Source of the DNA: a virus
Virus record (IMG/VR): IMGVR_UViG_3300032268_000973
Location: 1 to 64,000 of that record
Length of the DNA stretch: 64,000 nucleotides
Direction: 5' to 3' (one strand)
Position 1 is the stretch's first letter; the number at the start of each line of letters is the position of its first letter. Position numbers and translations under genes: made by a program. Of the stretch, positions 1 to 59,622 are shown piece by piece. Below the pieces are notes generated by a model. It was not told the DNA's origin and made no database searches. It was given only the letters and a program-made list of their open reading frames with translations.

Positions 1-210
1 GGTAGTAGTGGTACGTCAGGAACAAGTGGTAGTAGTGGGACCTCAGGTAGTAGTGGTACGTCAGGAACAAGTGGTAGTAGTGGTACGTCAGGAACAAGTG
101 GTAGTAGTGGGACCTCAGGTAGTTCGGGATCAAGTGGCACATCAGGAAGTAGTGGTTCTTCAGGCTCAAGTGGAAGTTCAGGAACTAGTGGAACGTCTGG
201 AACAAGTGGT
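1..210 (+). repeat. Coding tandem repeat, Gly-Ser/Thr-Ser triplets (9-nt unit, with 27-nt and 18-nt higher-order units)
   Basis: GGTAGTAGTGGTACGTCAGGAACAAGT occurs at 1, 46 and 73. GGTAGTAGTGGGACCTCA occurs at 28 and 100. The repeat degenerates after about 118. Confidence 0.95.
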
Positions 211-1386
211 ACATCTGTTGCAGTATCGGGTACTCAAAACACAGTTGTTAAGTTTACAAGTTCTACAACTATCGGAAATAGTCAGATATTTGATGATGGG
301 ACTAATATTGGAATAGGAACCGTGATTCCTGTTGCTAAACTAAGTATCGAAGGTACGGGTTCAACGTATTCAACACCAGCATCAAGTAATGTTCCTGGTA
401 TTTATATCTATAATACAACAGAAAATACTTCTGCAAATGTATTCTTAGCATTAAGGACGACAGGTGCTGGAGGTGGGGACCCAATTCTTTCTTGGGATAT
501 TGGGGGTGTTATTGGTTGGAGCGCAGGTATTGACAATTCAGATGGTGACAAGTTTAAAATATCAAATACTTGGTCTGACTTAACGAGTCTTACAAGATTC
601 ACGATTGATGGTTCTGGTAAAGTAGGTATAGGACAAACTTCTCCAAATTATTCATTAACAGTAAATGGGTCTATTCAAGCTGGATATATATTATTAGGAG
701 ATACAGTAAATGCAAATAATTCTACAATAGAATTTGTTACAGGGCCAAACAGTACTTCTTATGTTCCAGCTGGAGGTCAAGGCAACATAAATTATTATGG
801 CGCAGGGGGTTTAACTTTATGTTATGGTGGTGGCAACGTAATGATTGGAACTATAAACAATACTGGACAAAAGCTACAAGTTAATGGGACTGCTATCTTT
901 AATGGTAGTGTGACGGCTAGTGGAACAGGAATTTTTGGAGGTACAAATTACCTTGTAAATACTTCAACAGGTACAGGTCCTGTATATCAGAGGATACTAA
1001 ACACAGGAGGAGATGTAATATTTGGAATTGCTAGTTCAACAGGAAGTAGCTTATTACCAGGTGTAGGTAATTATGCGACAGTTTTATATAATAATACTAA
1101 TACTGATATTTCTTTTGGTACAAATCAAATCAAACGATTAACTATTGCTTCAGGAGGGAACGTGCTTCCTGGTTCGAATGGAACACAAGATTTAGGATCA
1201 TCATCATTATCTTGGGCTAATATCTACACTAATGATTTACATTTAAGTAATGAAACAAAGAAGGAGGGTAATGATATTGATGGAACAACAGGAAGTTGGA
1301 CAATTCAAGAAGGATCTGAAAAACTTTATATTATTAATAATAAAAATAACAAAAAATACTTTATTAAACTAGAAGAAATTTTATAA
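1..1386 (+). CDS. Tail fibre protein, C-terminal part (5' end lies outside the window)
   Basis: Frame 1 is open from base 1 (GSSGTSGTSGSS...) into the 322..1386 ORF. It has repeated xGIGT/NVGIG-type fibre motifs and a C-terminus (WANIYTNDLHLSNE...DGTTGSWTIQEG...KKYFIKLEEI) typical of myovirus fibre ends. A tail fibre chaperone gene lies downstream. Confidence 0.8.
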   Translation, partial: GSSGTSGTSGSSGTSGSSGTSGTSGSSGTSGTSGSSGTSGSSGSSGTSGSSGSSGSSGSSGTSGTSGTSGTSVAVSGTQNTVVKFTSSTTIGNSQIFDDGTNIGIGTVIPVAKLSIEGTGSTYSTPASSNVPGIYIYNTTENTSANVFLALRTTGAGGGDPILSWDIGGVIGWSAGIDNSDGDKFKISNTWSDLTSLTRFTIDGSGKVGIGQTSPNYSLTVNGSIQAGYILLGDTVNANNSTIEFVTGPNSTSYVPAGGQGNINYYGAGGLTLCYGGGNVMIGTINNTGQKLQVNGTAIFNGSVTASGTGIFGGTNYLVNTSTGTGPVYQRILNTGGDVIFGIASSTGSSLLPGVGNYATVLYNNTNTDISFGTNQIKRLTIASGGNVLPGSNGTQDLGSSSLSWANIYTNDLHLSNETKKEGNDIDGTTGSWTIQEGSEKLYIINNKNNKKYFIKLEEIL

Positions 1387-1854: not shown

Positions 1855-2199
1855 ATGAATGGATTTTTGAAAATTGAAAAAGAAGATGGTTCAATTGAAT
1901 ATGTGAATGAAAATTATGATGAAATGGTTCGGAATACTGTTATCGTCAACGGGCCAGTACCTGAAGACATTATATCATTGTCACACGAAGAATTAGAGAT
2001 CAAAATTTTAGAAAATCATAAAAATCTCATAAGACAAGAAAGAGATAAAAAATTATCGGAATGTGATTGGACACAAAATATTGATTCTCCTTTGAATGAA
2101 GAAAAGAAACACGAATGGAGATTATATCGACAAATATTAAGAAATTTACCATCTACTATTGTTGATATAAGTCCAATAAGTTGGCCATCTAAACCATAA
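1855..2199 (+). CDS. Tail fibre assembly chaperone
   Basis: C-terminal RQERDKKLSECDWTQ..DSPL..EKKHEWRLYRQILRNLP...ISWPSKP is the characteristic phage tail assembly chaperone motif. Confidence 0.85.
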   Translation: MNGFLKIEKEDGSIEYVNENYDEMVRNTVIVNGPVPEDIISLSHEELEIKILENHKNLIRQERDKKLSECDWTQNIDSPLNEEKKHEWRLYRQILRNLPSTIVDISPISWPSKP

Positions 2200-2235: not shown

Positions 2236-2595
2236 ATGAAAACAATCGAACCAGTCTCAATATGGGATAACGGACAAGTATACCAAGCTAAAATTTTGAA
2301 CACGTATGCAGTAAACGTTACACTTAATACAAGTGCAACATTTTATTACGCATTATTTTCCGAATTGGAATATGGTTATATGGGGCAACAAGTAGCCCAA
2401 GGGAATCTAAATATGACAGGAGAAGCATATGCCCAATGGCAATTAGATAGTTATGCTTGGGATTGGGTTGCGTCACAATTAAATCTTACAATCACAGGAG
2501 ATTATGTAATACCATCACCAACTCCAACCGCAACTCCGCAACCAACACCTACTCCACAACCGACACCTACTCCAACATCTACCCCTAACCCATAA
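2236..2595 (+). CDS. Hypothetical protein with a C-terminal Pro/Thr repeat tail
   Basis: 119 aa, ending in PSPTPTATPQPTPTPQPTPTPTSTPNP. Confidence 0.7.
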   Translation: MKTIEPVSIWDNGQVYQAKILNTYAVNVTLNTSATFYYALFSELEYGYMGQQVAQGNLNMTGEAYAQWQLDSYAWDWVASQLNLTITGDYVIPSPTPTATPQPTPTPQPTPTPTSTPNP

Positions 2596-2669
2596 AAAAA
2601 ATTTACAATTAAAACTATTGATGTTATAAAATAATATCATTAGTTTTTATTGCAAACTAGAACGCTATT

Positions 2670-3074
2670 ATGAAATTAAAACTTATAGAAATTGCTCAAT
2701 TATTTGATGAGTTGAATGGTAAATTATTAAATAATCAAACTGGTGAAAGAAGTAAGGGATTATTATCTCATAAACTCAGTGTTAGAGTTAAGTATATTTT
2801 GGTAAATGAATTAAATAAAAAACTAACAGAATATATTAAAGAATTCGAAGAGGCTCAATTATCAATTTTTAAAGAATTAGGAACACAGGAAGAAAATAGT
2901 TATATTGTTCCCGCAGAAAAAAGAGATGAGTTACAAAATCAATTATCGGAATTATCCAATATTGAAAAGACCATTGAGGTTCCCAATATTAATGTTGAAG
3001 AATTGTTTGATATTGAGACTGAAGATTATTGGCCGATATTAATGGACAAACTTTTATCCAAGACTCAAGAGTAA
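2670..3074 (+). CDS. Hypothetical acidic helical protein
   Basis: 134 aa ORF with an A-rich initiation context, followed by a terminator-like hairpin. Confidence 0.65.
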   Translation: MKLKLIEIAQLFDELNGKLLNNQTGERSKGLLSHKLSVRVKYILVNELNKKLTEYIKEFEEAQLSIFKELGTQEENSYIVPAEKRDELQNQLSELSNIEKTIEVPNINVEELFDIETEDYWPILMDKLLSKTQE

Positions 3075-3090
3075 AAATTATAAATTTTAT

Positions 3091-3129
3091 GAAAAAGACT
3101 CATAACATAAACGTGTATGGGTTTTTTTC
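3091..3129 (+). terminator. Putative intrinsic terminator
   Basis: Imperfect stem GAAAAAGACTCATA / TATGGGTTTTTTTC downstream of the 3074 stop. Confidence 0.45.
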
Positions 3130-3208
3130 GTTTTATATGAATTGTGATTATTTCAAATATTTAGCACAAAGATTTTAATAAAAAAAAATAAATTCACATA
3201 GTTGGCAC

Positions 3209-3216
3209 TATTTATA
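3209..3216 (+). promoter_or_regulatory. TATTTATA upstream motif (candidate late promoter)
   Basis: Lies 18 nt before the ATG at 3235. The flanking 20-mer ACTATTTATAAATTAAATAA is repeated at about 59597. Confidence 0.55.
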
Positions 3217-3234
3217 AATTAAATAAAGAAAACA

Positions 3235-3897
3235 ATGGCATGTAGTAAATATACACTCACGAACACAGGTTCAACAATAGTTAACTTCAGTTACAGAAGA
3301 TGTGATGATTCACTTTGGGATTATCAAGTTGAGCTATTACAAAACCAAACTAAAAATATTTGGGTTATCGATGGCACCTATACTGTGGCACCATCTTTCA
3401 AAAACTCAATTTCTTTGGTTGATCAAGGAGCGTTTCCTCCTATTTCTGCGACAAATACACCAACACCTTCTAATACACAAACTCCGAGTCCAACAATTAC
3501 TCCAACTGAAACTCCAACTAATACTCCAACTCCAAGTGTTACAAAAACTCAAACACCAACACAAACAACTAGTGCAACTCCTACCGCAACATCTACAGAA
3601 ACACCAACTAATACCCCAACGCCAACTTCTACAGCAACTCAAACTCCAACTAACACCACAACTCCAACTAACACCACAACTCCAACTAATACCCCAACAC
3701 AAACAAACACAGGAACTCCAGCAGTCACTGCAACTCCGACAGCAACCGCAACTCCAACAAATACCCCATCACAAACAAACACAGGAACTCCAGCAATCAC
3801 CGCGACTCCGACTGCAACCGCAACTCCGACAGCAACCGCAACTCCAACAAATACCGCAACTTCGACGTTGACACCAACACCGACAACGACTTCTTAA
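3235..3897 (+). CDS. Mucin-like Thr/Pro-rich protein (small beta-type N-terminal domain plus about 145 aa of TP repeats)
   Basis: After about residue 70 the sequence is almost only T, P, N, A, S and Q repeats (TNTPTPS, TATPT). Confidence 0.85.
3643..3858 (+). repeat. Coding tandem repeats (18-nt and 72-nt units)
   Basis: ACTCCAACTAACACCACA occurs at 3643 and 3661, with a partial copy at 3679. An imperfect 72-nt duplication starts ACAAACAAACACAGGAACTCCAGCA at 3699 and 3771. Confidence 0.9.
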
Positions 3898-3920
3898 AAT
3901 TAAAAAAAAATTATATATCC

Positions 3921-3950
3921 AAAACCCTCCACTTTGTCGGAGGGTTTTTT
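3921..3950 (+). terminator. Intrinsic terminator
   Basis: 10-bp stem AAAACCCTCC / GGAGGGTTTT with a T tract, 23 nt after the 3897 stop. Confidence 0.8.
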
Positions 3951-3974
3951 ATTTTATGGTAAAAATATATACTA

Positions 3975-5237
3975 ATGAAAATATTCGTTCAAATAGCATC
4001 TTACCGAGATCCTCAATTAGTTCCAACATTGAAGGACATGATTGCAAACGCCAAGAAACCTAAAAATTTAGTTTTTTCAATTGCAAGACAATTTAGTGAA
4101 ACCGATGGTTTTGACAACTTAGATGAGTTTAGAAAAGACAAAAGGTTCAAAATTTTGGACATTCCTTACCAAGAATCCAAAGGTGTTTGTTGGGCAAGAA
4201 ATATGACTCAACAACTTTATGATGGTGAAGAGTATACATTACAAATCGACTCTCATATGAGATTTGTAAAAGATTGGGATGATATTTTAATCAAAATGAT
4301 AAAAGGATTACAAAAAGATGGATATAAAAAACCATTATTGACAGGTTATGTTCCATCGTTTGATCCTGAAAACGATCCCGCTGGAAGATCACAAGACGCT
4401 TGGAGAATGGCGTTTGATAGGTTTATCCCTGAAGGTGCGGTGTTTTTCTTACCTGAAACAATTCCAGGTTGGAGAGAAATGACAAAACCCGTAACCTCAA
4501 GATTCTATTCCGCTCACTTCTGTTTTACGTTAGGTCAATTCTCAACTGAAGTACAACACAACCCCGAATACTATTTCCACGGAGAAGAAATCTCTATTGC
4601 CGCAAGAGCATATACTTGGGGATATGATTTGTTCCACCCACACATTCCTGTTATATATCACGAATACACTCGAAAGGGAAGAACAAAACAGTGGGATGAT
4701 GACAAGACTTGGGGAGAAAAAAATAAACATTCTCACCACACCAATAGAAAATTATTCGGTATGGACGGTGAAACCCAAGAGGGCCATGATGGTCCATTTG
4801 GGTTTGGTACTATAAGAACTTTACGAGAATATGAAAGATATGCTGGATTATTATTTGAAAAAAGAGCGGTGGACCAACATTGTTTAGATAAAAAATACGC
4901 ACCAAGTCCTGTGATCGAAGATGAAGAGGAATGGAAGAAAAGTTTCTCAACAATTTACAAGCATTGTATTGATGTTGGATATTCAAGTGTTCCTGAAACT
5001 GACTATGATTTTTGGGTTGTTGCATTCCACGGTCCAAATGATGAAACAATCTATAGAAGAGATGCTGACAAAAATGAAATTGCTGGGTTTATGCGAGACC
5101 CTGACAAATATTGTAAAGTTTGGAGAGAATTCCCAACTACAGTATTACCAAGTTATTGGGTAGTATGGCCTCACTCAGAGTCAAAAGGATGGTGTGATAG
5201 ATTAACAGGTCAATTAAATCACAATCACGTAAGTTAA
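3975..5237 (+). CDS. Glycosyltransferase, GlcNAc-transferase type (GT60 / Skp1 GlcNAc-transferase-like) with an extra C-terminal domain
   Basis: IFVQIASYRDP N-terminus, GVCWARN, LQIDSHMRF (DxH), FYSAHFCF and YFHGEE motifs. Confidence 0.8.
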   Translation: MKIFVQIASYRDPQLVPTLKDMIANAKKPKNLVFSIARQFSETDGFDNLDEFRKDKRFKILDIPYQESKGVCWARNMTQQLYDGEEYTLQIDSHMRFVKDWDDILIKMIKGLQKDGYKKPLLTGYVPSFDPENDPAGRSQDAWRMAFDRFIPEGAVFFLPETIPGWREMTKPVTSRFYSAHFCFTLGQFSTEVQHNPEYYFHGEEISIAARAYTWGYDLFHPHIPVIYHEYTRKGRTKQWDDDKTWGEKNKHSHHTNRKLFGMDGETQEGHDGPFGFGTIRTLREYERYAGLLFEKRAVDQHCLDKKYAPSPVIEDEEEWKKSFSTIYKHCIDVGYSSVPETDYDFWVVAFHGPNDETIYRRDADKNEIAGFMRDPDKYCKVWREFPTTVLPSYWVVWPHSESKGWCDRLTGQLNHNHVS

Positions 5238-5983
5238 TGAAATTCGCAGATATACCAAAGTTTGTTATCAACTTAGATAGAAGACCCGATAGATTAGAAT
5301 CCATTACAAAAGAAATGGAATATATCGGTTGGGACTTCGAAAGATTTGCTGCAATTGACACCAATTCCTATATGGGTATAACAAAATCTACTTTTGAGAT
5401 TATCAAAATAGCTAAAGAGAGGAAGTATCCTCGAGTTATGTTGATTGAAGATGATTGTGGGTTTATGCCTTATTCGAGAGATTTGTTAAATCAAATTGAA
5501 GAAAAATGTCCTAACTTGGAATTTGCAATGTTCAATTTAGGACCAACCCAAAATAGACCAATCAATGTTAGTAAGGATTATGATATTCTTTATGATATGA
5601 CGAATACCCCTGAAGCTCCACCAGATGCTAGAGGAATATTTGGTGCTAATATGGTGATCTATGATGAGTCAATTTATGACAAGATTTTTGATATCGCATT
5701 AACAGCGTTCACTAATAGTGGAGAATACTTTTTTGCCCTTGATGATTATACCTATAGGTTCATTGTTGACAAACATCAAAGTTATTGCCCAATATTACCA
5801 GTCGCTCCACAAAAAACAAATTATTCAAATATTTCTGAAGGTGTGTATAACAATTGGTATATGCAAACTTATAATTGGAATAGATGGACCCCAATAAAAA
5901 TTCCGAACGAATATATGGATCAATATAAAGTTCAGGAAATGAAAGATAGAAACGAACACCACAAATTTTATTATGTCAGTTAA
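5237..5983 (+). CDS. Glycosyltransferase, GT25-like
   Basis: FVINLDRRPDRLE, FERFAAID and MLIEDD motifs. Coupled to the upstream gene through TAATG. Confidence 0.8.
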   Translation: MKFADIPKFVINLDRRPDRLESITKEMEYIGWDFERFAAIDTNSYMGITKSTFEIIKIAKERKYPRVMLIEDDCGFMPYSRDLLNQIEEKCPNLEFAMFNLGPTQNRPINVSKDYDILYDMTNTPEAPPDARGIFGANMVIYDESIYDKIFDIALTAFTNSGEYFFALDDYTYRFIVDKHQSYCPILPVAPQKTNYSNISEGVYNNWYMQTYNWNRWTPIKIPNEYMDQYKVQEMKDRNEHHKFYYVS

Positions 5984-6854
5984 ATTTATCACATCAATTT
6001 ATAGTGATCTTTATGGAACGGAGTATGGAGGACGAATAAATAGAGGAGGTCACTATAGATTTAGTTTATTGTCATTACTCAAAATGAGTAATGCAGATTT
6101 TTTATGTTACACATCAGACCGAGAACTTGATTCTTTAAAGACTTTTTTTTACGAAGAAAACAATATTTCTGAAGATAAACTCAAATTTAAAGTTTTTGAT
6201 ATATCTCAGACAAAATTTAGAGACCTAATTAACGAGTTAAAGAATATTGAAGATACAAAAAAATCGGATAGATGTATTGAAATTCAATATTCCAAATTCC
6301 ATTGGTGGGACAATGAAGATCGATCTTATGATTATTACTATTGGATCGATGCGGGACTTTCTCACTGTGGTTTGATTCCTTTAAAATACTTGACTGATGA
6401 AGGTTTGGTAAGAAGATATTACGAGAGTTCCCTTTTTAATAACGAATTTTTAAAAAATTTGATTGAAGATACTGGTGATAAATTCTTAATACTCGGAAAA
6501 GAAAATGATAGAAATTTTTGGTCAGGGACTGTTGATCGAAAATGGTATAAAGAATATGATAGAAGTTTACACATTATCGGTGGACTATTCGGTGGACATA
6601 AAAGTAAGTGGGATGAAATAGTAAAATTGTTTGAGACTTATGCTGAGAACATTATGAGGACTGATCAAGGAATACCTCACGAGGAACACATTATGTCACT
6701 AATGTATTTTAACCATAAAGAATTATTTGAGAGAAAACATTTTGATATTTGGTGGTGTAGAGATAATGCACCAAGAGGAACATCAGAAGAACTTTTCGAA
6801 CAAAATAAAAGTTTTTATAAAATTTTAGAAGAATTCAACAGAATATATGAGTAA
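5973..6854 (+). CDS. HtrL/YibB (WlaTC)-like glycosyltransferase
   Basis: YSKFHW, YYWIDAGLSH, IIGGLFGG and HEEHIMS motifs. Overlaps the upstream gene. Confidence 0.6.
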   Translation: MSVKFITSIYSDLYGTEYGGRINRGGHYRFSLLSLLKMSNADFLCYTSDRELDSLKTFFYEENNISEDKLKFKVFDISQTKFRDLINELKNIEDTKKSDRCIEIQYSKFHWWDNEDRSYDYYYWIDAGLSHCGLIPLKYLTDEGLVRRYYESSLFNNEFLKNLIEDTGDKFLILGKENDRNFWSGTVDRKWYKEYDRSLHIIGGLFGGHKSKWDEIVKLFETYAENIMRTDQGIPHEEHIMSLMYFNHKELFERKHFDIWWCRDNAPRGTSEELFEQNKSFYKILEEFNRIYE

Positions 6855-8523
6855 TATAACTTTAGTTACAGGTATTTGGGATATTGGAAGAGGAGACCTT
6901 ACAGAAGGTTGGAGTCGTTCATATCAACATTATTTAGATAAATTTGAACAACTTTTAAAGGTTGAAGAAAACCTTATAATTTTTGGAGATGAAGAACTTA
7001 AATCTTTTGTCTTTGAGAGAAGAAGTGTAAACAATACTCAGTTTATCACCAGACCTCTTAGTTGGTTTACAAGTTCAGAATTTTTCCCTTTGATCCAAAA
7101 AATTAGAACTAATTCAGATTGGTATAACCAAGTTGGTTGGTTGAAAGAATCTACACAAGCTAGATTAGAAAATTATAATCCATTGGTCATGTCAAAGATG
7201 TTTCTTTTACATGATGCAAAGATTATGGATCAGTTTGATTCTGAATACATGTTTTGGATTGATGGTGGTCTTACAAATACAGTTCATCCAGGTTATTTCA
7301 CTCACGACAAAGTGTTGAATAATTTATCAAAATACATTTCAAAATTTTCTTTTGTTTGTTTCCCATACGATGCTGAAAGGGAAGTTCACGGATTTGAATA
7401 TAACAAATTGAATGAACTTGCTGGAGCTAAAGTAAATAAGGTTGCTCGTGGTGGATTTTTTGGTGGACCAAAACACACCATTGGAGATATGAATGGAATT
7501 TATTATGGATTGTTGAAGACCACGTTATCCGAAGGATATATGGGAACTGAAGAATCTATTTTCAGTTTGATGTGTTATAAGCACTCTGACATGGTAAATT
7601 ATTTTGAAATAGAATCTAATGGGTTGGTTGGAAGATTTTTTGAAGATTTGAAAAATGATTCTTTAAAAGTGAAAAACGAAACTTCTGTACAGGTTGTAAA
7701 TAATTTGGATACAAACAAAGTTGGATTGTATGTTATAACATTTAATAGTCCAAAACAATTCAAAACTTTAATTGAGTCTATGTTGGCTTACGACAAAGAT
7801 TATCTAAATAAAACTAGTAAATTTTTATTAGATAACTCAAGTGATTTATCAACTACCGAAGAATACTCGGTTATTTGCAAAGAGTTTGGGTTTGAACATA
7901 TTAAAAAAGATAATTTGGGGATTTGTGGTGGTAGACAATGGGTTGCAGAACATTTCCAAAATGAAACTGATTTAGACTACTATTTGTTTTTTGAAGATGA
8001 TATGTTCTTTTATCCAAATGAAGGAACCGTTTGCCGAAATGGATTCAATAGATTTGTTCCAAATCTTTATAGTAAGTCGCTAGAGATTATTAAAAAAGAA
8101 AACTTTGATTTCCTAAAACTTAATTATTCTGAATTTTATGGTGATAATGGAACTCAGTGGTCGTGGTATAATGTTCCACAACACGTGAGAACTGAATTTT
8201 GGCCTGGTAAACCAAGATTACCTGAAATGGGTTTAGACCCTAACGCACCTAAGACACAATTCAACAAAGTATTGTCACACAAAGGATTACCGTATGCTGC
8301 GGGTGAGGTATACTATTGCAATTGGCCTCAGATTGTTAGCAGAACAGGAAATCAAAAAATGTTTTTAGACACAACTTGGGCTCACCCATACGAACAGACT
8401 TGGATGTCTCATATGTATCAATTGGTTAAAAAAGGTGAATTGAATCCCGCATTGTTATTATTAACACCAACGGAACACGATAGATTTGAACATTACGAGA
8501 GGGGGCTTCGTAAAGAGTCATAA
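6847..8523 (+). CDS. Two-domain glycosyltransferase: HtrL/YibB-like N-terminal domain plus GT-A (GT2-like) C-terminal domain
   Basis: ITLVTGIWDIGR, MFWIDGGL, RGGFFGG and MGTEESIF in the first half. LLDNSSD, NLGICGGRQW and YLFFEDD (DxD-type) in the second half. Confidence 0.7.
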   Translation: MSNITLVTGIWDIGRGDLTEGWSRSYQHYLDKFEQLLKVEENLIIFGDEELKSFVFERRSVNNTQFITRPLSWFTSSEFFPLIQKIRTNSDWYNQVGWLKESTQARLENYNPLVMSKMFLLHDAKIMDQFDSEYMFWIDGGLTNTVHPGYFTHDKVLNNLSKYISKFSFVCFPYDAEREVHGFEYNKLNELAGAKVNKVARGGFFGGPKHTIGDMNGIYYGLLKTTLSEGYMGTEESIFSLMCYKHSDMVNYFEIESNGLVGRFFEDLKNDSLKVKNETSVQVVNNLDTNKVGLYVITFNSPKQFKTLIESMLAYDKDYLNKTSKFLLDNSSDLSTTEEYSVICKEFGFEHIKKDNLGICGGRQWVAEHFQNETDLDYYLFFEDDMFFYPNEGTVCRNGFNRFVPNLYSKSLEIIKKENFDFLKLNYSEFYGDNGTQWSWYNVPQHVRTEFWPGKPRLPEMGLDPNAPKTQFNKVLSHKGLPYAAGEVYYCNWPQIVSRTGNQKMFLDTTWAHPYEQTWMSHMYQLVKKGELNPALLLLTPTEHDRFEHYERGLRKES

Positions 8524-8528
8524 CAGTA

Positions 8529-8535
8529 TATTTAT
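8529..8535 (+). promoter_or_regulatory. TATTTAT motif 4 nt before the ATG
   Basis: Same motif as before other structural genes. Confidence 0.4.
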
Positions 8536-8539
8536 TGTT

Positions 8540-8920
8540 ATGGAATTTTATATAAAAAAGAACGCAACTCTACCTGTTTTAAAAATGCAGGTGGTAAAAG
8601 ACGGAAGAGCAGGTTACCAACAACTCATGGAAGACCTTGAGGTCTCGACTATATTTTTTACTATGATTGATGTTGAAACTGGTATCCCGAAAATTGTATC
8701 AGCACCTTGTCAAATTGTTAGTCTAATTCTACCTGAAGAAGGAGCTGCGACCGAATACTATATTTATTTCAAGTTCACTTCAAGGGACACAAATACCCCT
8801 GGTAGATATCAGGGTCAATTTTTAATTAGAAATGATGAGGGTAGTTTAATACTACCAATTAGGGAAGAATTATACATAAATATTCAAGATAGTTTCATAT
8901 CAGAAACAGCATGTTGTTAA
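8540..8920 (+). CDS. BppU-like Ig/beta-sandwich structural protein (start reassigned from 8486 to 8540)
   Basis: MEFYIKKNATLPVLKMQV...DTNTPGRYQGQF pattern. The 8486 start would overlap the upstream GT by 38 nt. Confidence 0.55.
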   Translation: MEFYIKKNATLPVLKMQVVKDGRAGYQQLMEDLEVSTIFFTMIDVETGIPKIVSAPCQIVSLILPEEGAATEYYIYFKFTSRDTNTPGRYQGQFLIRNDEGSLILPIREELYINIQDSFISETACC

Positions 8921-26767: not shown

Positions 26768-26782
26768 AATCAACACCCAACC

Positions 26783-26790
26783 TATTTATA
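26783..26790 (+). promoter_or_regulatory. TATTTATA upstream motif
   Basis: Lies 15 nt before the ATG at 26806. Confidence 0.55.
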
Positions 26791-26805
26791 ATTAAAAAAA
26801 TATAA

Positions 26806-31872: not shown

Positions 31873-32195
31873 TGGCGTATCAATATTATAATAGATATAG
31901 TGATTTTCTCATCAATGGTGAGCAAACCGTTGTGCCTTATGTTTCGTTACCACAAAAACCCACAGATAAGGCATATATCTATAAAGTTGCGAAAAGTAGA
32001 TTGGATAAGGTCTCACAAGAATTTTATAACTCTCCCGTGTTTAATTGGTTAATTCTTCAAGCCAATCCTCAATTCGGCGGATTAGAAAACAATATTTACG
32101 ATGGTGCTGTATTGATTATTCCTTTTCCCCTCCTACCATCTTTACAAGATTACAAAGCGGCATTAGAAAACCATTTTTATTATTATGGCAGGTAA
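31872..32195 (+). CDS. LysM-like baseplate protein (gp53 / P2 gpX-like)
   Basis: YIYKVAKSRLDKVSQEFYNSPVFNWLILQANP...GAVLIIP. Confidence 0.8.
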   Translation: MAYQYYNRYSDFLINGEQTVVPYVSLPQKPTDKAYIYKVAKSRLDKVSQEFYNSPVFNWLILQANPQFGGLENNIYDGAVLIIPFPLLPSLQDYKAALENHFYYYGR

Positions 32196-35100
32196 TATTC
32201 AAGCGGATAATAGTGGAAACATTCTTGTTGAATTCGATTACAATAACATTATTGTGGTTGATCCTAACAAGACAATTGATGATTTTGGTAACATCAGTGA
32301 AAGATTAGTTGATCACGAAAAACTTGTGATGTATGCTAATTTGGAGGCTGAGTTATTACCAAGAACAAAACTTGCGGTTGGTGGATCACCTGAAGATAGA
32401 ATTCGAACGATATCAGTTGCGAAAATGAATTTTCTTAAACCTACAAAGAATGCATTTTTGGGAACAGGATATTATGACGAACTTACGGGAGAAAATTCAA
32501 CTCAGTTCAAAGGGACTAACCAACAACTCGAAAAAGGACAAGACCCAAAAAATGGAGACAAACCTTATATTCAAAATACTGTTGCAAATGAAAAAGATAT
32601 TATTGATAATGGTCTCTTAGGGATAACTTCAATCAATATACAAACCGACAGTAGTTTTATACCAACCGTAGAAATTCAACTTGAAGATATACAAGGTCGT
32701 GGATTGTTTGAATTGGGAAATAACTCTCCTTATTCAGCATTCTTTAATTTACCTTACCCACCCTTTTATTTGACATTAAAAGGGTATTATGGGCAAGCCA
32801 TCAGATATCAACTTAACTTACAAACATTTCACGCGTCCTTTAATGGATTTAGCGGAAACTATTTAGTTAGACTTCAGTTCAAAGGTTACAAATTTAATAT
32901 CCTTAATGAGGTCTCAATGGGCCACTTATTGGCGGCTCCTCACATGTATAGTCAAAGATTTGACGTGACTCAAACGGTTGAAGGGCCCCAACAACCAAAT
33001 GCGGCCGCCGAATCACAAGCGAGTACTCAAGCAGAACGAGGGGCTAATAATCTTGGATCAAGCGAGGCTGTGGTTACGCAACTTGTTGCTGAGAAGGGTT
33101 ATCAAAAAATTGTTGAAGTTTATAGTGAATACAAAGCGAAAGGATTGATTGCACCTAATTTTCCCGAATTAACTTTGGTTCAATTGATGAACAAGCTTGA
33201 CCAGTTTGAACAAACTATTGTCGAATCATTCGAAAAAACTGAGGTCGAATCTTTAACTAATATTCGAAATTACAAATCAGTTTTAACTCAATACTTTAAT
33301 AATGTGAGGGGTGCGAATAATTCTTGGTTTGCAATTTACTTAGATCCCAATCCAATCATTCTTCTTAATAATCAAGAAAAGATTTATGTATTTAAAAATT
33401 TATCTCGTGAGGTAAAAACCACGGCAATAACTTTATTACAAGAAAATATTTCCAAATACAACAAATCTTTATCTGAAAACCCTACTATGGGTTCAACCCC
33501 GAACCCTATAAAGTATGATACTATTTCGGTCACACCTCCTCCTTACGATTCAATAGACTGGAGAGCAACTACAAGAATTAGAACAGGAATACCAAATCCT
33601 ACTGAAGCGGATATACTTGCGTTTCAGTCTTCACTTTCATCACTTTGGGCACTAACGGAATTCCAAAAAACAGAAAGCCCGAATCAAATTGAACCTGTCC
33701 CTCAAAATTTTTTCACATTTGAGGGTGAAAATAGATTTGATAAAAATATTGCTCTGTTGGAAACACAAGCAAACAAAAAACTTTCAGAATTCGAAACTGA
33801 AATTTCTGCAAAATTATTAAGAAAGATTGAAGACACAGATGTGGGGTTAGGTTTCAGACCTACTGTTAGGAACATGATTGCAGTTATTATGGCGTCAGCT
33901 GAAGGGTTTATACGACTTATGGATGATGTTCATACTAATGCATGGAATGTGAAATATGATCCAGTTCGTCAATTAGCAATTTTAGACAATCAAACATCGG
34001 CATTAGGTAGTGAAACTATCGATTATGTCTCAAGAGACCCATCCGTAACATACAACAATAATGAATTAGATAATAATGCAAGAAATTCCCAAATTCCTGT
34101 ATATCCTTGGCCACAATTCTTTGTGGAAGATCCTGATGATAAGAAGGGAAGATTTCAGTTAAAATATCTTGCAGATCCAAGTGTTGTAGATATTACTCAA
34201 GGTTATTTGTATGACAAGTGGCCTGAAGTGGAATTTGTTGAAGAATATATGAAAGGGTTGACACAGAAGTTTCAAAACCCTAACGCTAGTCCTCCATTAG
34301 ATAATGAGAGAGATACAAATATAATCAACATCAATGCGATAGAATTTCCGTCTACAGGTCTTGCGTATACCAACAAAGAAGAAATCAAGTTTTTCTATGA
34401 AATTTGGGAACGACAATTTCTGACGACTCACTATTCAGGATTGATAAGAGCAAACTCAAATCAAATAGATGAACTTTTTAGATTAAATACTGAAACAGAA
34501 TTTAATAATATTCAAAAGAAATTGGGGATAAGTTCACCTTATTTGACTTTGAAGTTAAAGAATTATGATTTGAATTCATCGAACTATCCAAATTTCTTAA
34601 ATAATATATCTAACTCAGGAACTGGCCGAGCATACCAAGAATATATTAGGGATTTCTTTGTTACTCCTTACATCAAAGGAATAACAGAAAATTCTTTTTC
34701 AATTTTGAACACGTTAGAAATTGGAAAAATACCTCAATTTGCTGCAAAATCTGAAGCATTAAAATTATTGATTGAGAATGCGTCTAACGCACCTTTGATT
34801 GTTGACACGTTGCCATATACAAATCAAACTTGGTGTTCAACAAATTTAAGTCAAAGTAGCACATCATTATCAAATGAAGTGTATAATACCAAAAAGTCTC
34901 TTAGAATATTCGAACCAAGAAAGATAATTTCTAATTTTACTGACGTATATGATTATAGTTTTAACCGACCTGTAACTAATTTCTCATACATATTAGGACA
35001 GAATCCTACATCTGAAGTTATTGGTGGGTTGAATTTTTTCTATATATCAAGATTCCCAAATAAATTTATTCCTACAGAGGGATATGTAAATGGAACTTAT

Positions 35101-38100
35101 CCAACCAACACTTTGGCACCAACCGCATTTGGTTCTAACATATTCAGGACAACAACTTCAATGTTGAATACACCTTATTTTGTTAATGCAATTCAAAATG
35201 GTGTTTATAATTCAAGGGCTCAAGGGAACCTATATCCATACGTTCAAGCGGCTTATTTATTCTTAAACTCCCTTCCATTGGCAACATTAAGGGAAAAATA
35301 CAAATCTATATCTAATAGTATTTCAACTGATTTGGATTACATTTCTGCCACGCTGAAAAAATTCGGAGCAATACACAAAATCCCTTATCCTTGGATTTTG
35401 AAATATGGATCTATTTGGCATAGATACAAAAAATACAAAGAATCGAATGTAGATATTCTTAGCACCGCTTGGGATAACTTTAACTATAGTGGAAATTATT
35501 ATCCACCTACAAGTTCGGTAACACAAACATACTCCTTCAAATATTCAAACGTTGATAAAAACATTACGTTGCAAAATGAGAATGAACAAATTCAAATGCA
35601 ACTTGGATTCTATCCTAAAGTAATCAATGACTTTAACGTTTTTTATAATGGATATGATTTATTCCAAAACTATACAGATCAAGAAATTCAGAACAGTGTT
35701 AATGCTGGTATGAAATTATATAATTTCAGTGATTCCAATATCATAGGAGCTATTCAACAAGAGAAAAATCTATCTTTGATAACTTGGTCGGTATTGTTAC
35801 CGAATTTACAGCCTGATTCTGCAATAGAATGTAATCCAAAAGACAACACGACTGGGAATGAATATTTTGTTGTTCCTTCATTTGGAACATTTTTCAATCA
35901 AACGACTAATGCATGTATTTCCAACACAAATAACACAGTCGTAGATTTGACAAATAATCCAAGTGTATATAATGGATCAGTGAGAACTTTGTGGTCAGCA
36001 CCAAATTTTGGATATTTTGATTCAAATCAAATTAAATTCCCTGAGCCTGATTCATATTTGAATTTTATCAATACCGATGGAGATCAGTCACCATTTCATT
36101 TCTTAACTGAAAACAACTATACAAAAATAGAAGAAGTGTTTTCAGTGTTTGATACAGAAATATTGGATGCTTTCGAACTTGAGTTTTTAAATTTCTGTAA
36201 GCCTATGACGGACGCTTCTAAAGGATCGGATGTTATCAGTTTTGGAATATCGCCAGTAAATGTGAATGCAAATTTCAAAAACTTTCAATCTCTATTTAAA
36301 AGTTTGATGTCAGTCCCTGTAAAGAGTGGTACTGAAACTGAAGATGAGTATTTCAAAAACACAATTAACAATCAATTTGGATTGTTCCAAGTTGGTATAA
36401 AAGCCTTCATGGAGTTTGATGTAATATTCAGATATGGTAATCCTTCAAATTATAAAAGAAGAATTTTTGCGTCATACCTATCTCATAACTCAACCGAAGT
36501 TGTTGTTGATCCAATAACTTTTGAACCATATGTTACAAATTCATTACCTAGTTTTGGAGGTATAAGTTTAGTTCAATCACAAGAAACATATCCTGAAGCT
36601 TGGACGGCTTTGGAAACCCAAGTTGGTTTTTCAACAATACCAAATGTCGCATATACTTCTGATGGGTCTTATATTACAGACTTTTTTATTGATAATAATA
36701 TTAAGTTTACATCAGAAAATGTTGTTTTGTTAGCACCAATCATTAAAATGTATGCGACACAAAAATTAAATAATCCAAGTATCAACGCTGCTCAGTTTCA
36801 AGATCAGCTCAGTTTATATTTGGAAAGAGAAGATGATTTACAAAACGTTTTCTTAAATGGGGTTCTGAGAAAATTAAATGCAGATTTGGATGATCAAGTA
36901 CAATTACCTGAGAGGGCGGTTAAAAGTGTTATTACAGGTGAACAAAGTAAGGTTGAAAACTATGAAGTATTCAAAGCCTTAAATGATAAGTGGATTGCTG
37001 GTGGAGATTATAAAACCAAAACCCTATTCGAAGATATGTTATTTATGGATAGGGCTTCGAGAAACATTGGAGATACCGTCCTAATTGACATATTCGATCT
37101 AAAAAACATGTTCAATGAAAATTCATTGAATCAAGCAATGAGTGTGTTCACATTCATAAGTGGAATTTTAATTAAAAACAATTTCACGGTGATGCCATTA
37201 CCAGCATATGTGAATTTTTACAATGTTCAGGATGTGGATGGAGTATCAATTCCTAAACCTGAGGGATCACTACAATTCGCAAATAGTTTGTGGGGAACAT
37301 TCTTAGATGTTGACTATAGAAACTCTGGGCCTAAGTTGGTATGTTTTTATGTGGGGAAACCTTCACAATATTTGAACTTACCGAAACAAAACTCAAGATT
37401 CCGAGATGATGCATTTGAGTTAAGGAGATCTTCTGATAATCCACTTTTGGAAAATCAACAAGGTAAAAAAGATTGGGCATTATCAAACAAATGTGTTGGA
37501 TTCAACGTCGATGTTGGAATTAGAAATCAAAATATATTTTATTCATTTACCGTGTCTCAAGATAACGGTGTTGCAACATCTGAATCGATCAACACACAGT
37601 TGAACATGGTTGACCAAGCATCAGGTAGGGCGGTTGCAACTCAAAACAACAGTTTATACAATCTATACAAACAGAGAAGTTATAAAGCTGGTGTTGTGAG
37701 TTTAGGAAACGCATTACTACAACCAACAATGTATTTCAATCTCAGACACGTTCCGATGTTCAATGGACCGTATATGATTACTGATGTTTCTCACTCAATC
37801 CAACCTGGTTCATTCCAAACAACATTCAACGGAATTCGTCAAGGAATTTATGATTTACCTGCAATTGATAGTTTACTACAAAGTATCAATCAAAATTTGA
37901 TCACAAGAATTGAGGAACTTCTTAAAATTAATAAAGATCAGATTGTAGTATCAGGAACAACAAACAACATCAAATCAGATAGTATTGTTCAAAAGGCCGA
38001 CAATACTTTAGATACTACAAATTCATGTAGTTCTAAAATTACTGACGATGTATATCTGAATGCTAGCCCTGGTTATGTCGCCGAAACTGGTAAATTGACT

Positions 38101-39495
38101 AAATTTACACCTACTGAGTTAGCGGATACATTGAAAAGACTTTTGCCAAGTGACCCTATATTACAAACATTTATTTATTGTATCTCTTATATCCGAACAT
38201 TCCAAAGTAATTCAAATACCGACGTTGGTAACTTCAACGGTTGGAATAATAACTTAGCCACTTTAGGATTAGACACAAATTGGTCAGGACAAGTATCGTT
38301 ATTATCTAAAACTTACAGTTGTGTTAATGTCAAAACAACAGACTCCAAAAATACTTCTTTACCTATCTCCCACTTTAGTTCTTTGGATGATTATGTAAGA
38401 TTTATGGCGGCACGATTGAGGCCAAGAGTTAGTCAAATTTTAGAGCCAAATATGGGATTGGCAAAATATTATGTTTGTTTTTGGCCACAAAAAAATATTG
38501 ATGTTACTTATTACGACGAAAATAAATCGAGATTCAAACAAACAGAAGACACATTTTTCAAAGCATTGTCATCGGCGGTAAGGGTTGGTTTAATTAACCC
38601 TGATGGTTCGGTTGACTTGAAAGAAACAATCAAGAATGATAATAAGAACCCAACTGTAACACCAACACCTTCATTGAGTCAAACTTGTCCTCCTCCATCC
38701 TTAAAATCTTTCGCTCCTGAGGATGGATACACAGGAACAATTATACAACTTAATGGAGAAAATTTTGAATCAATAAAGTCTATAGAAGTGTCGGGTCAAA
38801 AAGTGGATATGAAAACCTTAACGGTATTTAACAAAAATACCTTAAGATTTACTTTACCTTCAATTACAATTCCATTAAACCAAGAAGTTGTTGTTGGAAA
38901 AATTTCGATCACTACTGAATTCGGTACGTCAGAAAGTTCATTGAATTTCACATTCAATCCAGCATTGCAAAATAAAACAACTTCTTCTCCAGGAGCATAC
39001 CAAAGTAAAGAACAAATACAACCTCCAACAATTGAACAACAAGAAGAGTTAGGGCAGAATAGAAATCCTCAGGATATAGGAAGTGTAATTTTAGAAAGTG
39101 AGTCTACGTCTATTTTCACAAACTTTTTCAATAACCCTATAACCAACACACTAAAAGTTTATTTGAAACCTGAATCAACTCCTGGAATAATTTCAGAAAC
39201 AGTCCTTATGGTAGTTTCGATATTCAATAGGAAACTAAGTAATAATAAATACGAAATAACATTAGACCGAACAGAAACTTTAGCATTGGATTCATTTGTA
39301 AAAGATAATGTTTTTTATATTACATATAGTGATGTTGCGGATATTTTGATTAACAATCCTCAAGGATCCTTTAAAACTAATTTTATAAAAGGTGATCAAT
39401 TGATAGAAATAAACTTTGAAATACAAGCAATTCCTTTGGATAAGATTAAATTCCCATCACCTGTTACAAGATCTTTCTTCTTCAGATTTAAATAA
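32185..39495 (+). CDS. Giant baseplate hub protein (gp27/VgrG-like) with C-terminal accessory domains
   Basis: GITSINIQ...VEIQLEDIQG near the N-terminus and GPYMITDVSHSIQPGSFQTTFNGIR hub motif. An IPT/TIG-like segment (SFAPEDGYTGTIIQLNGENF) lies near the C-terminus. Confidence 0.65.
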   Translation: MAGNIQADNSGNILVEFDYNNIIVVDPNKTIDDFGNISERLVDHEKLVMYANLEAELLPRTKLAVGGSPEDRIRTISVAKMNFLKPTKNAFLGTGYYDELTGENSTQFKGTNQQLEKGQDPKNGDKPYIQNTVANEKDIIDNGLLGITSINIQTDSSFIPTVEIQLEDIQGRGLFELGNNSPYSAFFNLPYPPFYLTLKGYYGQAIRYQLNLQTFHASFNGFSGNYLVRLQFKGYKFNILNEVSMGHLLAAPHMYSQRFDVTQTVEGPQQPNAAAESQASTQAERGANNLGSSEAVVTQLVAEKGYQKIVEVYSEYKAKGLIAPNFPELTLVQLMNKLDQFEQTIVESFEKTEVESLTNIRNYKSVLTQYFNNVRGANNSWFAIYLDPNPIILLNNQEKIYVFKNLSREVKTTAITLLQENISKYNKSLSENPTMGSTPNPIKYDTISVTPPPYDSIDWRATTRIRTGIPNPTEADILAFQSSLSSLWALTEFQKTESPNQIEPVPQNFFTFEGENRFDKNIALLETQANKKLSEFETEISAKLLRKIEDTDVGLGFRPTVRNMIAVIMASAEGFIRLMDDVHTNAWNVKYDPVRQLAILDNQTSALGSETIDYVSRDPSVTYNNNELDNNARNSQIPVYPWPQFFVEDPDDKKGRFQLKYLADPSVVDITQGYLYDKWPEVEFVEEYMKGLTQKFQNPNASPPLDNERDTNIININAIEFPSTGLAYTNKEEIKFFYEIWERQFLTTHYSGLIRANSNQIDELFRLNTETEFNNIQKKLGISSPYLTLKLKNYDLNSSNYPNFLNNISNSGTGRAYQEYIRDFFVTPYIKGITENSFSILNTLEIGKIPQFAAKSEALKLLIENASNAPLIVDTLPYTNQTWCSTNLSQSSTSLSNEVYNTKKSLRIFEPRKIISNFTDVYDYSFNRPVTNFSYILGQNPTSEVIGGLNFFYISRFPNKFIPTEGYVNGTYPTNTLAPTAFGSNIFRTTTSMLNTPYFVNAIQNGVYNSRAQGNLYPYVQAAYLFLNSLPLATLREKYKSISNSISTDLDYISATLKKFGAIHKIPYPWILKYGSIWHRYKKYKESNVDILSTAWDNFNYSGNYYPPTSSVTQTYSFKYSNVDKNITLQNENEQIQMQLGFYPKVINDFNVFYNGYDLFQNYTDQEIQNSVNAGMKLYNFSDSNIIGAIQQEKNLSLITWSVLLPNLQPDSAIECNPKDNTTGNEYFVVPSFGTFFNQTTNACISNTNNTVVDLTNNPSVYNGSVRTLWSAPNFGYFDSNQIKFPEPDSYLNFINTDGDQSPFHFLTENNYTKIEEVFSVFDTEILDAFELEFLNFCKPMTDASKGSDVISFGISPVNVNANFKNFQSLFKSLMSVPVKSGTETEDEYFKNTINNQFGLFQVGIKAFMEFDVIFRYGNPSNYKRRIFASYLSHNSTEVVVDPITFEPYVTNSLPSFGGISLVQSQETYPEAWTALETQVGFSTIPNVAYTSDGSYITDFFIDNNIKFTSENVVLLAPIIKMYATQKLNNPSINAAQFQDQLSLYLEREDDLQNVFLNGVLRKLNADLDDQVQLPERAVKSVITGEQSKVENYEVFKALNDKWIAGGDYKTKTLFEDMLFMDRASRNIGDTVLIDIFDLKNMFNENSLNQAMSVFTFISGILIKNNFTVMPLPAYVNFYNVQDVDGVSIPKPEGSLQFANSLWGTFLDVDYRNSGPKLVCFYVGKPSQYLNLPKQNSRFRDDAFELRRSSDNPLLENQQGKKDWALSNKCVGFNVDVGIRNQNIFYSFTVSQDNGVATSESINTQLNMVDQASGRAVATQNNSLYNLYKQRSYKAGVVSLGNALLQPTMYFNLRHVPMFNGPYMITDVSHSIQPGSFQTTFNGIRQGIYDLPAIDSLLQSINQNLITRIEELLKINKDQIVVSGTTNNIKSDSIVQKADNTLDTTNSCSSKITDDVYLNASPGYVAETGKLTKFTPTELADTLKRLLPSDPILQTFIYCISYIRTFQSNSNTDVGNFNGWNNNLATLGLDTNWSGQVSLLSKTYSCVNVKTTDSKNTSLPISHFSSLDDYVRFMAARLRPRVSQILEPNMGLAKYYVCFWPQKNIDVTYYDENKSRFKQTEDTFFKALSSAVRVGLINPDGSVDLKETIKNDNKNPTVTPTPSLSQTCPPPSLKSFAPEDGYTGTIIQLNGENFESIKSIEVSGQKVDMKTLTVFNKNTLRFTLPSITIPLNQEVVVGKISITTEFGTSESSLNFTFNPALQNKTTSSPGAYQSKEQIQPPTIEQQEELGQNRNPQDIGSVILESESTSIFTNFFNNPITNTLKVYLKPESTPGIISETVLMVVSIFNRKLSNNKYEITLDRTETLALDSFVKDNVFYITYSDVADILINNPQGSFKTNFIKGDQLIEINFEIQAIPLDKIKFPSPVTRSFFFRFK

Positions 39496-48817: not shown

Positions 48818-48827
48818 CATTTTAGGC

Positions 48828-48860
48828 TATTTATAAGGAAACTAACCGTAGTATATTTAT
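48828..48860 (+). promoter_or_regulatory. Two TATTTAT(A) motifs before the gp25-like gene
   Basis: TATTTATA at 48828..48835 and TATTTAT at 48854..48860, with the ATG at 48865. Confidence 0.55.
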
Positions 48861-51179: not shown

Positions 51180-51243
51180 TAGGTTTATTATCCCTATTTA
51201 TTGTTTATGATTTTAGGTGTGTGTTAGAAAATAACACCTAAAC

Positions 51244-51251
51244 TATTTATA
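51244..51251 (+). promoter_or_regulatory. TATTTATA upstream motif
   Basis: Lies 15 nt before the ATG at 51267. Confidence 0.55.
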
Positions 51252-51266
51252 AACTAAAGATATTAT

Positions 51267-59583: not shown

Positions 59584-59598
59584 AAAAAAGAACTAAAC

Positions 59599-59606
59599 TA
59601 TTTATA
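59599..59606 (+). promoter_or_regulatory. TATTTATA upstream motif
   Basis: Lies 16 nt before the ATG at 59623, within the 20-mer shared with the 3207 site. Confidence 0.55.
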
Positions 59607-59622
59607 AATTAAATAATAAGAT

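Follow-up and report, generated by a model that had tools for sequence, protein, structure and literature searches.

Mucin-type protein O-glycosylation is usually treated as a process of the eukaryotic secretory pathway, and to our knowledge very few cases of glycosylated phage virions are known. In this study we analysed the first 64 kb (the window) of the 183-kb IMG/VR virus record IMGVR_UViG_3300032268_000973, which has a CheckV completeness of 61%, and compared a run of four glycosyltransferase (GT) genes at positions 3975-8523 with the closest described systems. Because the run directly follows genes with long Thr/Pro (TP) tracts, this uncultured jumbo phage probably sugar-coats its own appendage proteins. 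We consider it rather likely, with substantial doubt left, that the four enzymes carry out cytoplasmic O-glycosylation of the phage's own Thr/Pro tracts, with a conserved initiator and swappable extenders. This is the best available reading of comparative genomics taken together with one published stain in the relative XacN1. Genes and proteins are named below by the first position of their open reading frame (ORF).

The GT60 family, to which the first enzyme of the run was assigned, acts on hydroxy amino acids of polypeptides, is related to the polypeptide N-acetylgalactosamine transferases (ppGalNAc-Ts) and is devoid of a ricin-like lectin domain (PMC8724618). An earlier, preliminary description of this DNA had given the same acceptor class and kinship, and the literature bears it out. 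Characterised GT60 enzymes initiate mucin-type glycosylation on Thr/Ser in Trypanosoma cruzi and Dictyostelium or modify a hydroxyproline (Hyp) of cytoplasmic Skp1 (PMC8724618). The protist polypeptide alpha-N-acetylglucosamine (GlcNAc) transferases of T. cruzi and Dictyostelium share with the phage enzyme the family PF11397, the DxH motif and the lack of a detected ricin-like lectin domain; their acceptors are Thr/Pro-rich mucin-like sequences, and the phage gene adjoins such sequences. Whereas the protist enzymes are type II membrane proteins of the Golgi, the phage enzyme is predicted to be soluble and has an additional conserved extension of ~120 aa.

The Skp1 pathway of Dictyostelium and Toxoplasma (PhyA, then the GT60 enzyme Gnt1, then soluble extenders) resembles the proposed phage system in being cytoplasmic and in using a soluble GT60 initiator followed by soluble GTs. 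The likeness extends to fusions of GT60 with prolyl 4-hydroxylase (P4H)-type oxygenases in metagenomes and to PF13640 oxygenases in the phage clade. Skp1 is modified at one proline, however, whereas the candidate acceptors of the phage are long repetitive tracts, and the oxygenase is not adjacent to the phage genes and is absent from the phages XacN1 and CM1. In mycobacteriophages, GTs encoded beside structural genes put O-glycans on virion proteins of the phage itself (Freeman et al. 2023, in the summary of PMC12619734). According to that summary, capsid and tail-tube subunits are modified at their C-termini, whereas the candidates here are long mucin-like tracts on separate proteins. Phage virion protein-glycosylation systems are marked by GTs with genomic linkage to their structural-protein acceptors, and here we found both adjacency and genome-wide co-occurrence of the GTs with candidate acceptors. 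Giant viruses (the capsid glycans of PBCV-1; Mimivirus R655) resemble the proposed system in glycosylating their own structural proteins in the cytoplasm with virus-encoded enzymes, but their hosts and acceptors differ from those of this phage. The glycans of PBCV-1 are atypical N-linked ones, for which no GT60 involvement was found in the literature searched. Phage-encoded glycosylation of the phage's own proteins is known; the present module would differ by a protist-type mucin initiator, and the literature searched contained no paper linking GT60 to phage protein glycosylation.

The 3975 protein matched PF11397 (GlcNAc) with an E value of 6.5e-66 and 223.6 bits (cut-off 21), covering model positions 2-43 and 94-351 of 352, and matched phrog_24687 at 3e-161. 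PF11397 was its sole Pfam match and no ricin-like lectin domain was detected. Among 40 diverse homologues (35-49% identity) the residues D92, H94 and H229 were invariant and S93 nearly so, D92-S93-H94 forming the DxH motif. A GT-A-type metal-binding DxH motif together with a downstream His is common to GT60 and the GT27 ppGalNAc-Ts. The conserved extension past the Pfam domain (residues ~300-420, ~120 aa) had no family match and contained the nearly invariant W406; by analogy with the ricin domain of ppGalNAc-Ts it might have an acceptor-targeting role. Sequence and profile searches of the PDB with this protein yielded nothing useful, and no solved GT60 relative could be aligned. GT60 relatives numbered 385 in IMG/VR, and a metagenome protein set contained >7,000 close homologues.

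The main candidate acceptor is the 3235 protein, in which residues 68-220 consist of 46% T and 19% P and contain 25 TxTP motifs. A second candidate, the 2236 protein, is 41% P and 31% T over residues 91-119, and a homologue of it was found in only 2 of 80 related loci. The preliminary description had the GTs directly following two such proteins and a Gly-Ser/Thr-Ser fibre. All of these genes are present, but a gene without a TP tract (2670-3074) lies between the two TP genes, and a hairpin (3921-3948) intervenes before the GT60 gene. A short TP linker also exists in the protein which that description called the hub, a label for which no PHROG match was obtained. Four adjacent genes at 118172-128196 of the record encode further large TP-linker proteins of 223-1189 aa, in which Thr/Pro linkers of 14-139 aa join small Cys-containing domains like beads on a string. 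Several of them begin with a Met-x-Cys-x-Cys-Phe-Tyr-type motif, and one has a 'WGDS'-type motif that looks PKD-like by eye and may point to an adhesin-type protein.

Synteny of GT60 with TP-repeat genes in relatives had been set beforehand as a test, and it was observed. We used the 80 best IMG/VR loci of the 385 GT60 relatives as a close-clade set (GT60 identity 84-95%). Where more than 1.5 kb of upstream sequence was available, 62 of 65 loci had one to four TP-rich ORFs directly before GT60, with tracts from ~30 to >1200 residues. A homologue of the 3235 N-domain was found directly 5' of GT60 in most relatives, in proteins of 97-1557 aa; some homologues were shrunk to ~70 aa and had lost the tract.

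The gene order GT60, GT25-like, HtrL-like, HtrL/GT-A fusion and small ORF was kept throughout the close clade, each component being present in 72-81 cases over the 80 loci. GT60 was the most conserved gene of the module (84-95% identity) and the GT25-like gene the most variable (34-87%). In some relatives the slot after GT60 was occupied by a methyltransferase, an RXYLT1-like protein, a GT2-like protein, a GT10 fucosyltransferase (8.5e-17) or a GT7-type galactosyltransferase domain. A constant initiator combined with exchangeable extenders is what one would expect of a diversifying surface glycan. Examples of swapped cassettes can be seen in two relatives, at L021:10885-16756 and L013:5060-6055.

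Among isolates, GT60 was found only in XacN1, Xoo-sp13, CM1 and RAS14, jumbo phages of Xanthomonas and Stenotrophomonas, and the same four were the only ones with the HtrL/GT-A fusion. The XacN1 cluster ORF334-ORF330 matched three of the four window genes, namely GT60 (47%), the HtrL-like ORF332 (31%) and the fusion ORF330 (43%). XacN1 thus resembles this phage in the homologous enzymes, in abundant TP tracts and in Schiff-positive virion proteins; it differs in a carbamoyltransferase within the cluster, another protein in the variable slot, the lack of a TP gene directly upstream and an unrelated DNA polymerase. No credible match to the 3235 N-domain was found in XacN1, Xoo-sp13 or CM1. A search with the XacN1 enzyme gave 18 IMG/VR loci (GC 0.32-0.59), of which 14 had a TP-rich ORF within 10 kb. 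Loci L118 and L120 (GT60 39% identical) encode a 404-aa protein whose small domains are connected by (TP)8 linkers; it ends at the GT60 start and is not homologous to the 3235 protein. The association with TP proteins recurred independently in distant lineages with non-homologous partners.

TP tracts were counted genome-wide as TPTPTP-coding 18-mers with one mismatch allowed, and the reversed pattern served as control. In genomes with the module the counts (tracts/control) were 37/3 in this record, 111/1 and 53/5 in two complete relatives, 102/8 in XacN1, 79/4 in Xoo-sp13 and 74/4 in CM1. Seven large phages of 160-735 kb, which lacked GT60 by tblastn, gave 2/0, 1/3, 1/0, 0/1, 0/0, 0/1 and 2/2. 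Module-bearing genomes were thus 20- to 100-fold richer in TP tracts than the seven module-free phages, and the tracts of this record are not due to chance. One tract of XacN1 is in the 3313-aa ORF325, which directly follows the baseplate wedge genes at a distance of a few kb from the GT genes. Virions of XacN1 were reported to contain at least two glycoprotein bands in periodate-Schiff staining, which the authors proposed to be made by phage GTs including ORF334; only ORF334 and ORF328 were recognised as GTs in that work (PMC5852040).

The same phage bears on the idea that the module glycosylates phage DNA, giving hypermodified bases against restriction. The module adjoins a DNA polymerase gene in the window, and in XacN1 genes for DNA polymerase, RNase H and NUDIX proteins lie within 8 kb of it; moreover, phage GT-A enzymes can glycosylate 5-hydroxymethylcytosine (bioRxiv 10.1101/2023.12.21.572611). 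XacN1 DNA nevertheless gives the predicted patterns with BssHII, NaeI and SpeI (PMC5852040), and the paper on DNA-glycosylating phage GTs names neither GT60, GT25 nor HtrL (bioRxiv 10.1101/2023.12.21.572611). We found no GT clustered with an enzyme making hydroxymethyl-pyrimidines (a dCMP/dUMP hydroxymethylase, or a C5-MT plus a TET-type oxygenase), the arrangement that marks DNA hypermodification. ThyX was not matched in three complete relatives or in XacN1; TET/JBP was likewise not matched in these genomes, which is uninformative because none was found in any control genome either and the TET search had no positive control. The single ThyA of the complete relatives is encoded ~90 kb from the module and, since its PCH and PFN motifs are canonical, is dUMP-specific and not a dCMP hydroxymethylase. 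DNA as the acceptor was judged highly improbable.

The four GT genes were confirmed as ORFs at the coordinates given earlier (3975-5237, 5237-5983, 5973-6854 and 6847-8523), each overlapping or abutting the next. Five GT domains had been claimed for them. The run is predicted to encode five GT-like domains, three of which, GT60, the GT25-like domain and the HtrL N-half of the 6847 protein, held up, while the 5973 protein and the C-half of the 6847 protein are assigned on weak evidence. The 5237 protein matched PF01755 (GT25) with 29.9 bits (cut-off 24) over residues 7-47 only (41 residues), and its C-terminal half was left unassigned. A profile of 19 homologues matched procollagen galactosyltransferase 1 (COLGALT1) at E 1.2e-6 to 2.2e-6 and Mimivirus R655 at E 2e-6; these matches span residues 5-105, and bacterial GT25 was matched weakly. 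E71-D72-D73 was invariant. The 5973 protein had no Pfam or NCBIfam match. It appeared HtrL-like by an Atlas language-model lead (0.97) and a probable distant paralogue of the N-half of the 6847 protein by hhalign (84.5% probability, E 7e-6). The latter N-half matched HtrL_YibB (PF09612) with E 4.5e-20 and 72.8 bits (cut-off 24.1) and scored 85.8 against the NCBIfam equivalog TIGR02192 (cut-off 264.9). Since the Pfam cut-off was passed and the equivalog cut-off was not reached, we concluded that it is a member of the HtrL_YibB family and not a YibB equivalog. The C-half reached 18.5 bits with GT2 (PF00535), below the cut-off of 23.3 (E 0.002); E383-D384-D385 was invariant, and the Atlas lead was 0.97 with GT2 on 25% of the cluster members. 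None of the four GT proteins contained a hydrophobic stretch of membrane-helix length. HtrL-like clusters were common in Nucleocytoviricota. The small ORF at 8486-8920 may be a fifth component of the module; its true start is probably downstream of 8486, because the protein has ~125 aa in relatives.

These families also allow the reading that the module remodels a glycan of the host envelope (the core of lipopolysaccharide (LPS) or lipooligosaccharide (LOS), capsule or a glycolipid), for example against superinfection, with the TP adjacency being incidental. GT25 and HtrL_YibB are typical of LOS/LPS outer-core loci (PMC4172580), GT clusters of jumbo phages have been interpreted as polysaccharide-modification systems (PMC7824862), and the GT operon can be transcribed apart from the TP gene. 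We found this reading quite unlikely all the same. All characterised members of the family of the lead enzyme act on polypeptides, and the module includes no flippase, polymerase or any membrane protein. It occurs in phages of very different hosts (GC 0.32-0.59), Xanthomonas and Stenotrophomonas phages included, so that one common envelope acceptor is not expected. Furthermore, presence of the module goes along with the abundance of TP tracts in the phage's own genome.

The collagen galactosyltransferases, as the best solved relatives of the GT25-like profile, point to another class of acceptor, as does the collagen-like Gly-Ser/Thr-Ser fibre encoded just upstream, with another one at 66-70.6 kb. 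The enzymes could modify other phage or host proteins, such as Ser/Thr of the collagen-like fibre, or could make a free or lipid-bound oligosaccharide. Hydroxylysine, however, is the residue that collagen galactosyltransferases modify, and Lys is absent from those fibre repeats that can be seen in the window; the neighbour of GT60 that recurs across lineages is a TP-tract protein and not a collagen-like one. Such activities therefore seem very unlikely.

A variant of TP-tract glycosylation concerns the residue that is modified. A phage 2-oxoglutarate (2OG)-Fe(II) prolyl hydroxylase could make Hyp in the TP tracts, to which GT60 would add GlcNAc as in the cytoplasmic Skp1 pathway. The GT60 member Gnt1 is a cytoplasmic Hyp-GlcNAc transferase (PMC8724618), and the environmental proteins P0122 (2461 aa) and P0123 (1641 aa) contain two to four GT60 domains fused to P4H-type PF13640 2OG oxygenase domains. 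PF13640 genes were found once in this record (102549-102782) and three times in each of two complete relatives. XacN1 and CM1, on the other hand, have the GT module and many TP tracts yet no PF13640 match; the oxygenase genes are not beside the GT module here, and PF13640 is a broad family. We regard Hyp modification as unlikely for the system as a whole; it may be a sub-variant, since GT60-oxygenase fusions exist and PF13640 oxygenases are encoded in the phage clade. An AhpC/TSA domain is present in P0122 as well, and the combination of hydroxylase and GT60 in one chain recalls the Skp1 pathway.

In the favoured reading, cytoplasmic O-glycosylation of the phage's Thr/Pro tracts, the four soluble GTs would build O-linked glycans during late infection. 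The likely acceptors would be appendage or fibre proteins, namely members of the 3235 family, the 2236 protein and, from other parts of the genome, the large proteins with TP linkers. GT60 would transfer the initial sugar, alpha-GlcNAc by family analogy, from a UDP-sugar donor to Thr, or alternatively to Hyp that a 2OG oxygenase of the phage had produced. Chain extension would then fall to the GT25-like, HtrL-like and GT-A-like proteins, and the outcome would be glycans that differ between lineages, carried by mucin-like stalks whose length varies widely. The donor sugar, acceptor residue, order of action, virion location and biological role are inferred. More tentatively, and with the balance of doubt against it, abundant freshwater jumbo phages and the XacN1 group might have a eukaryote-like cytoplasmic mucin-type pathway, in which GT60 and swappable Golgi-type extenders (GT25, GT7, GT10, RXYLT1-like) put lineage-specific glycans on hypervariable stalks of virion appendages, a phage 'glycocalyx' under diversifying selection. 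The glycans of such a glycocalyx would possibly be LacNAc- or Lewis-like.

Several observations weigh against O-glycosylation of the TP tracts. The hairpin separates the 3235 gene from the GT operon, the operon adjoins the DNA polymerase gene, and the four large TP proteins are encoded ~115 kb away from GT60 in the same record. Since the close-clade loci are close kin, many of them near-duplicates, their synteny amounts to few independent events, and some proximity of TP genes and GT60 is expected because TP-rich genomes have TP genes in several places. XacN1 and Xoo-sp13 have no TP gene within 8 kb upstream of GT60, and the Schiff-stained bands of XacN1 were not assigned to proteins. The GT25 and HtrL families are familiar chiefly from LOS/LPS loci; HtrL_YibB is an uncharacterised family known only by this kind of association (PMC4172580), and the statement that HtrL enzymes are established to extend glycans had to be given up. 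PDB profile searches returned nothing for the GT60, 5973 and 6847 proteins (three of four), and an AlphaFold2 model of the 6847 protein was unusable (mean pLDDT 41.6; 12-sequence alignment).

The preliminary description had proposed O-glycans on the virion's own mucin-like domains rather than on DNA or LPS. This is partly supported by the synteny, the tract counts, the XacN1 stain, the lack of membrane segments in the GTs and the weakness of the DNA alternative; it needs amending in that the acceptor may be Hyp and not Thr. A role as glycan shield or receptor mimic, also proposed there, is speculation. If the reading is true, large environmental phages would commonly have mucin-type protein O-glycosylation too, with a built-in system that varies both glycan structure and stalk length. 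This would bear on phage adsorption, stability, grazing, immune recognition and the origin of GT60/GT27-type enzymes, and would offer soluble single-chain enzymes with which Thr/Pro peptides could be glycoengineered. As a cultured phage, XacN1 is open to a direct test of the idea.

Coordinates of the features discussed in the text. Positions are those of the window unless marked as record; aa, amino acids.
Position	Strand	Feature	Match or evidence
1..1386	+	Collagen-like (Gly-Ser/Thr-Ser repeat) tail-fibre gene, 3' part, open at window start	Pfam Collagen 1.9e-12; tail-fibre PHROGs 3e-8 to 5e-11
1855..2199	+	Tail-fibre assembly chaperone	PF16778 Phage_tail_APC, E 4.2e-18
2236..2595	+	119-aa protein, 90-aa globular part and 29-aa Pro/Thr tail; candidate acceptor	
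2670..3074	+	134-aa protein without Thr/Pro tract	only sub-threshold Pfam matches
3208..3217	+	Promoter-like motif CTATTTATAA	18 nt 5' of the 3235 gene start
3235..3897	+	220-aa protein, conserved 67-aa Cys-containing N-domain and 153-aa Thr/Pro tract; main candidate acceptor	
3921..3948	+	Strong terminator-like hairpin with T-run after it, between 3235 gene and GT60	10-bp stem, 5 GC pairs
3975..5237	+	GT60-family (PF11397) glycosyltransferase; predicted initiator	PF11397 and phrog_24687
5237..5983	+	GT25-like glycosyltransferase, variable slot of module	PF01755
5973..6854	+	HtrL_YibB-like protein; probable paralogue of N-half of next gene	profile-profile comparison
6847..8523	+	Two-domain protein, HtrL_YibB N-half and GT-A/GT2-like C-half with EDD motif	PF09612; GT2 (below cut-off)
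8486..8920	+	Small conserved ORF closing the module	homologue after module in 76/80 loci; no family match
9525-12308		Family B DNA polymerase	matches only Salinibacter and Nostoc/Anabaena phage polymerases, 23-26% identity
19179-19188	-	CTATTTATAA copy	
26782-26791, 48827-48836, 51243-51252, 59598-59607	+	CTATTTATAA copies	
32185..39495	+	2436-aa protein, short TP linker at residues 2155-2167; further possible acceptor	no PHROG match
record 66036-70610 (L093:2036-6610)		Collagen-like fibre, 1524 aa, with Peptidase_S74 (endosialidase-chaperone) domain, outside window	

The 10-mer CTATTTATAA had six copies in the window, against 0.45 expected. The copies on the + strand lie 15-38 nt before start codons, including those of the baseplate wedge gene and of large genes in the baseplate region, and the motif is probably a late promoter element of this phage. 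It is only from this late-promoter-like motif that we infer a virion location of the 2236 and 3235 proteins. The motif that the 3235 gene has in common with baseplate genes, and the terminator of its own, count in favour of TP-tract glycosylation. The exact 10-mer was not kept upstream of the TP genes in relatives (four copies in 1.3 Mb). Among 55 distinct sequences taken upstream of 3235 homologues, most had a core, [GC]TATTTAT[AT], ~15-30 nt before the start codon; in the window this core occurred 13 times against 6.4 expected, a marginal enrichment.

The window has a GC content of ~34% and encodes genes of a contractile-tail phage, namely tail sheath, tail tube, baseplate wedge, DnaB-type helicase, ribonucleotide reductase and family B DNA polymerase. 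The tail sheath had its best match in a Microcystis phage (31% identity), there is no close cultured relative, and megablast found no match to the region among 50,697 phage records. The polymerase of XacN1 did not match the window polymerase at E 1e-20; since the latter matches those of Salinibacter and Nostoc phages and not that of XacN1, the GT module is common to otherwise distant jumbo phages. Complete relatives have genomes of 317-326 kb. Membership in the aquatic 'moraphages', which were defined with four core GT orthogroups and all carry heat-shock genes (PMC12619734), was considered and rejected, as HSP70 was unmatched in three complete relatives and their genome size is above the reported range.

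Beyond the window, the 1524-aa fibre is followed at 72-98 kb of the record by genes for NDP-sugar epimerases/dehydratases and a GT7-LamG protein, which speak for the favoured reading, and for several radical SAM enzymes. The region of ~66-98 kb is thus a large glycan-synthesis block, and the phage invests heavily in sugar chemistry.

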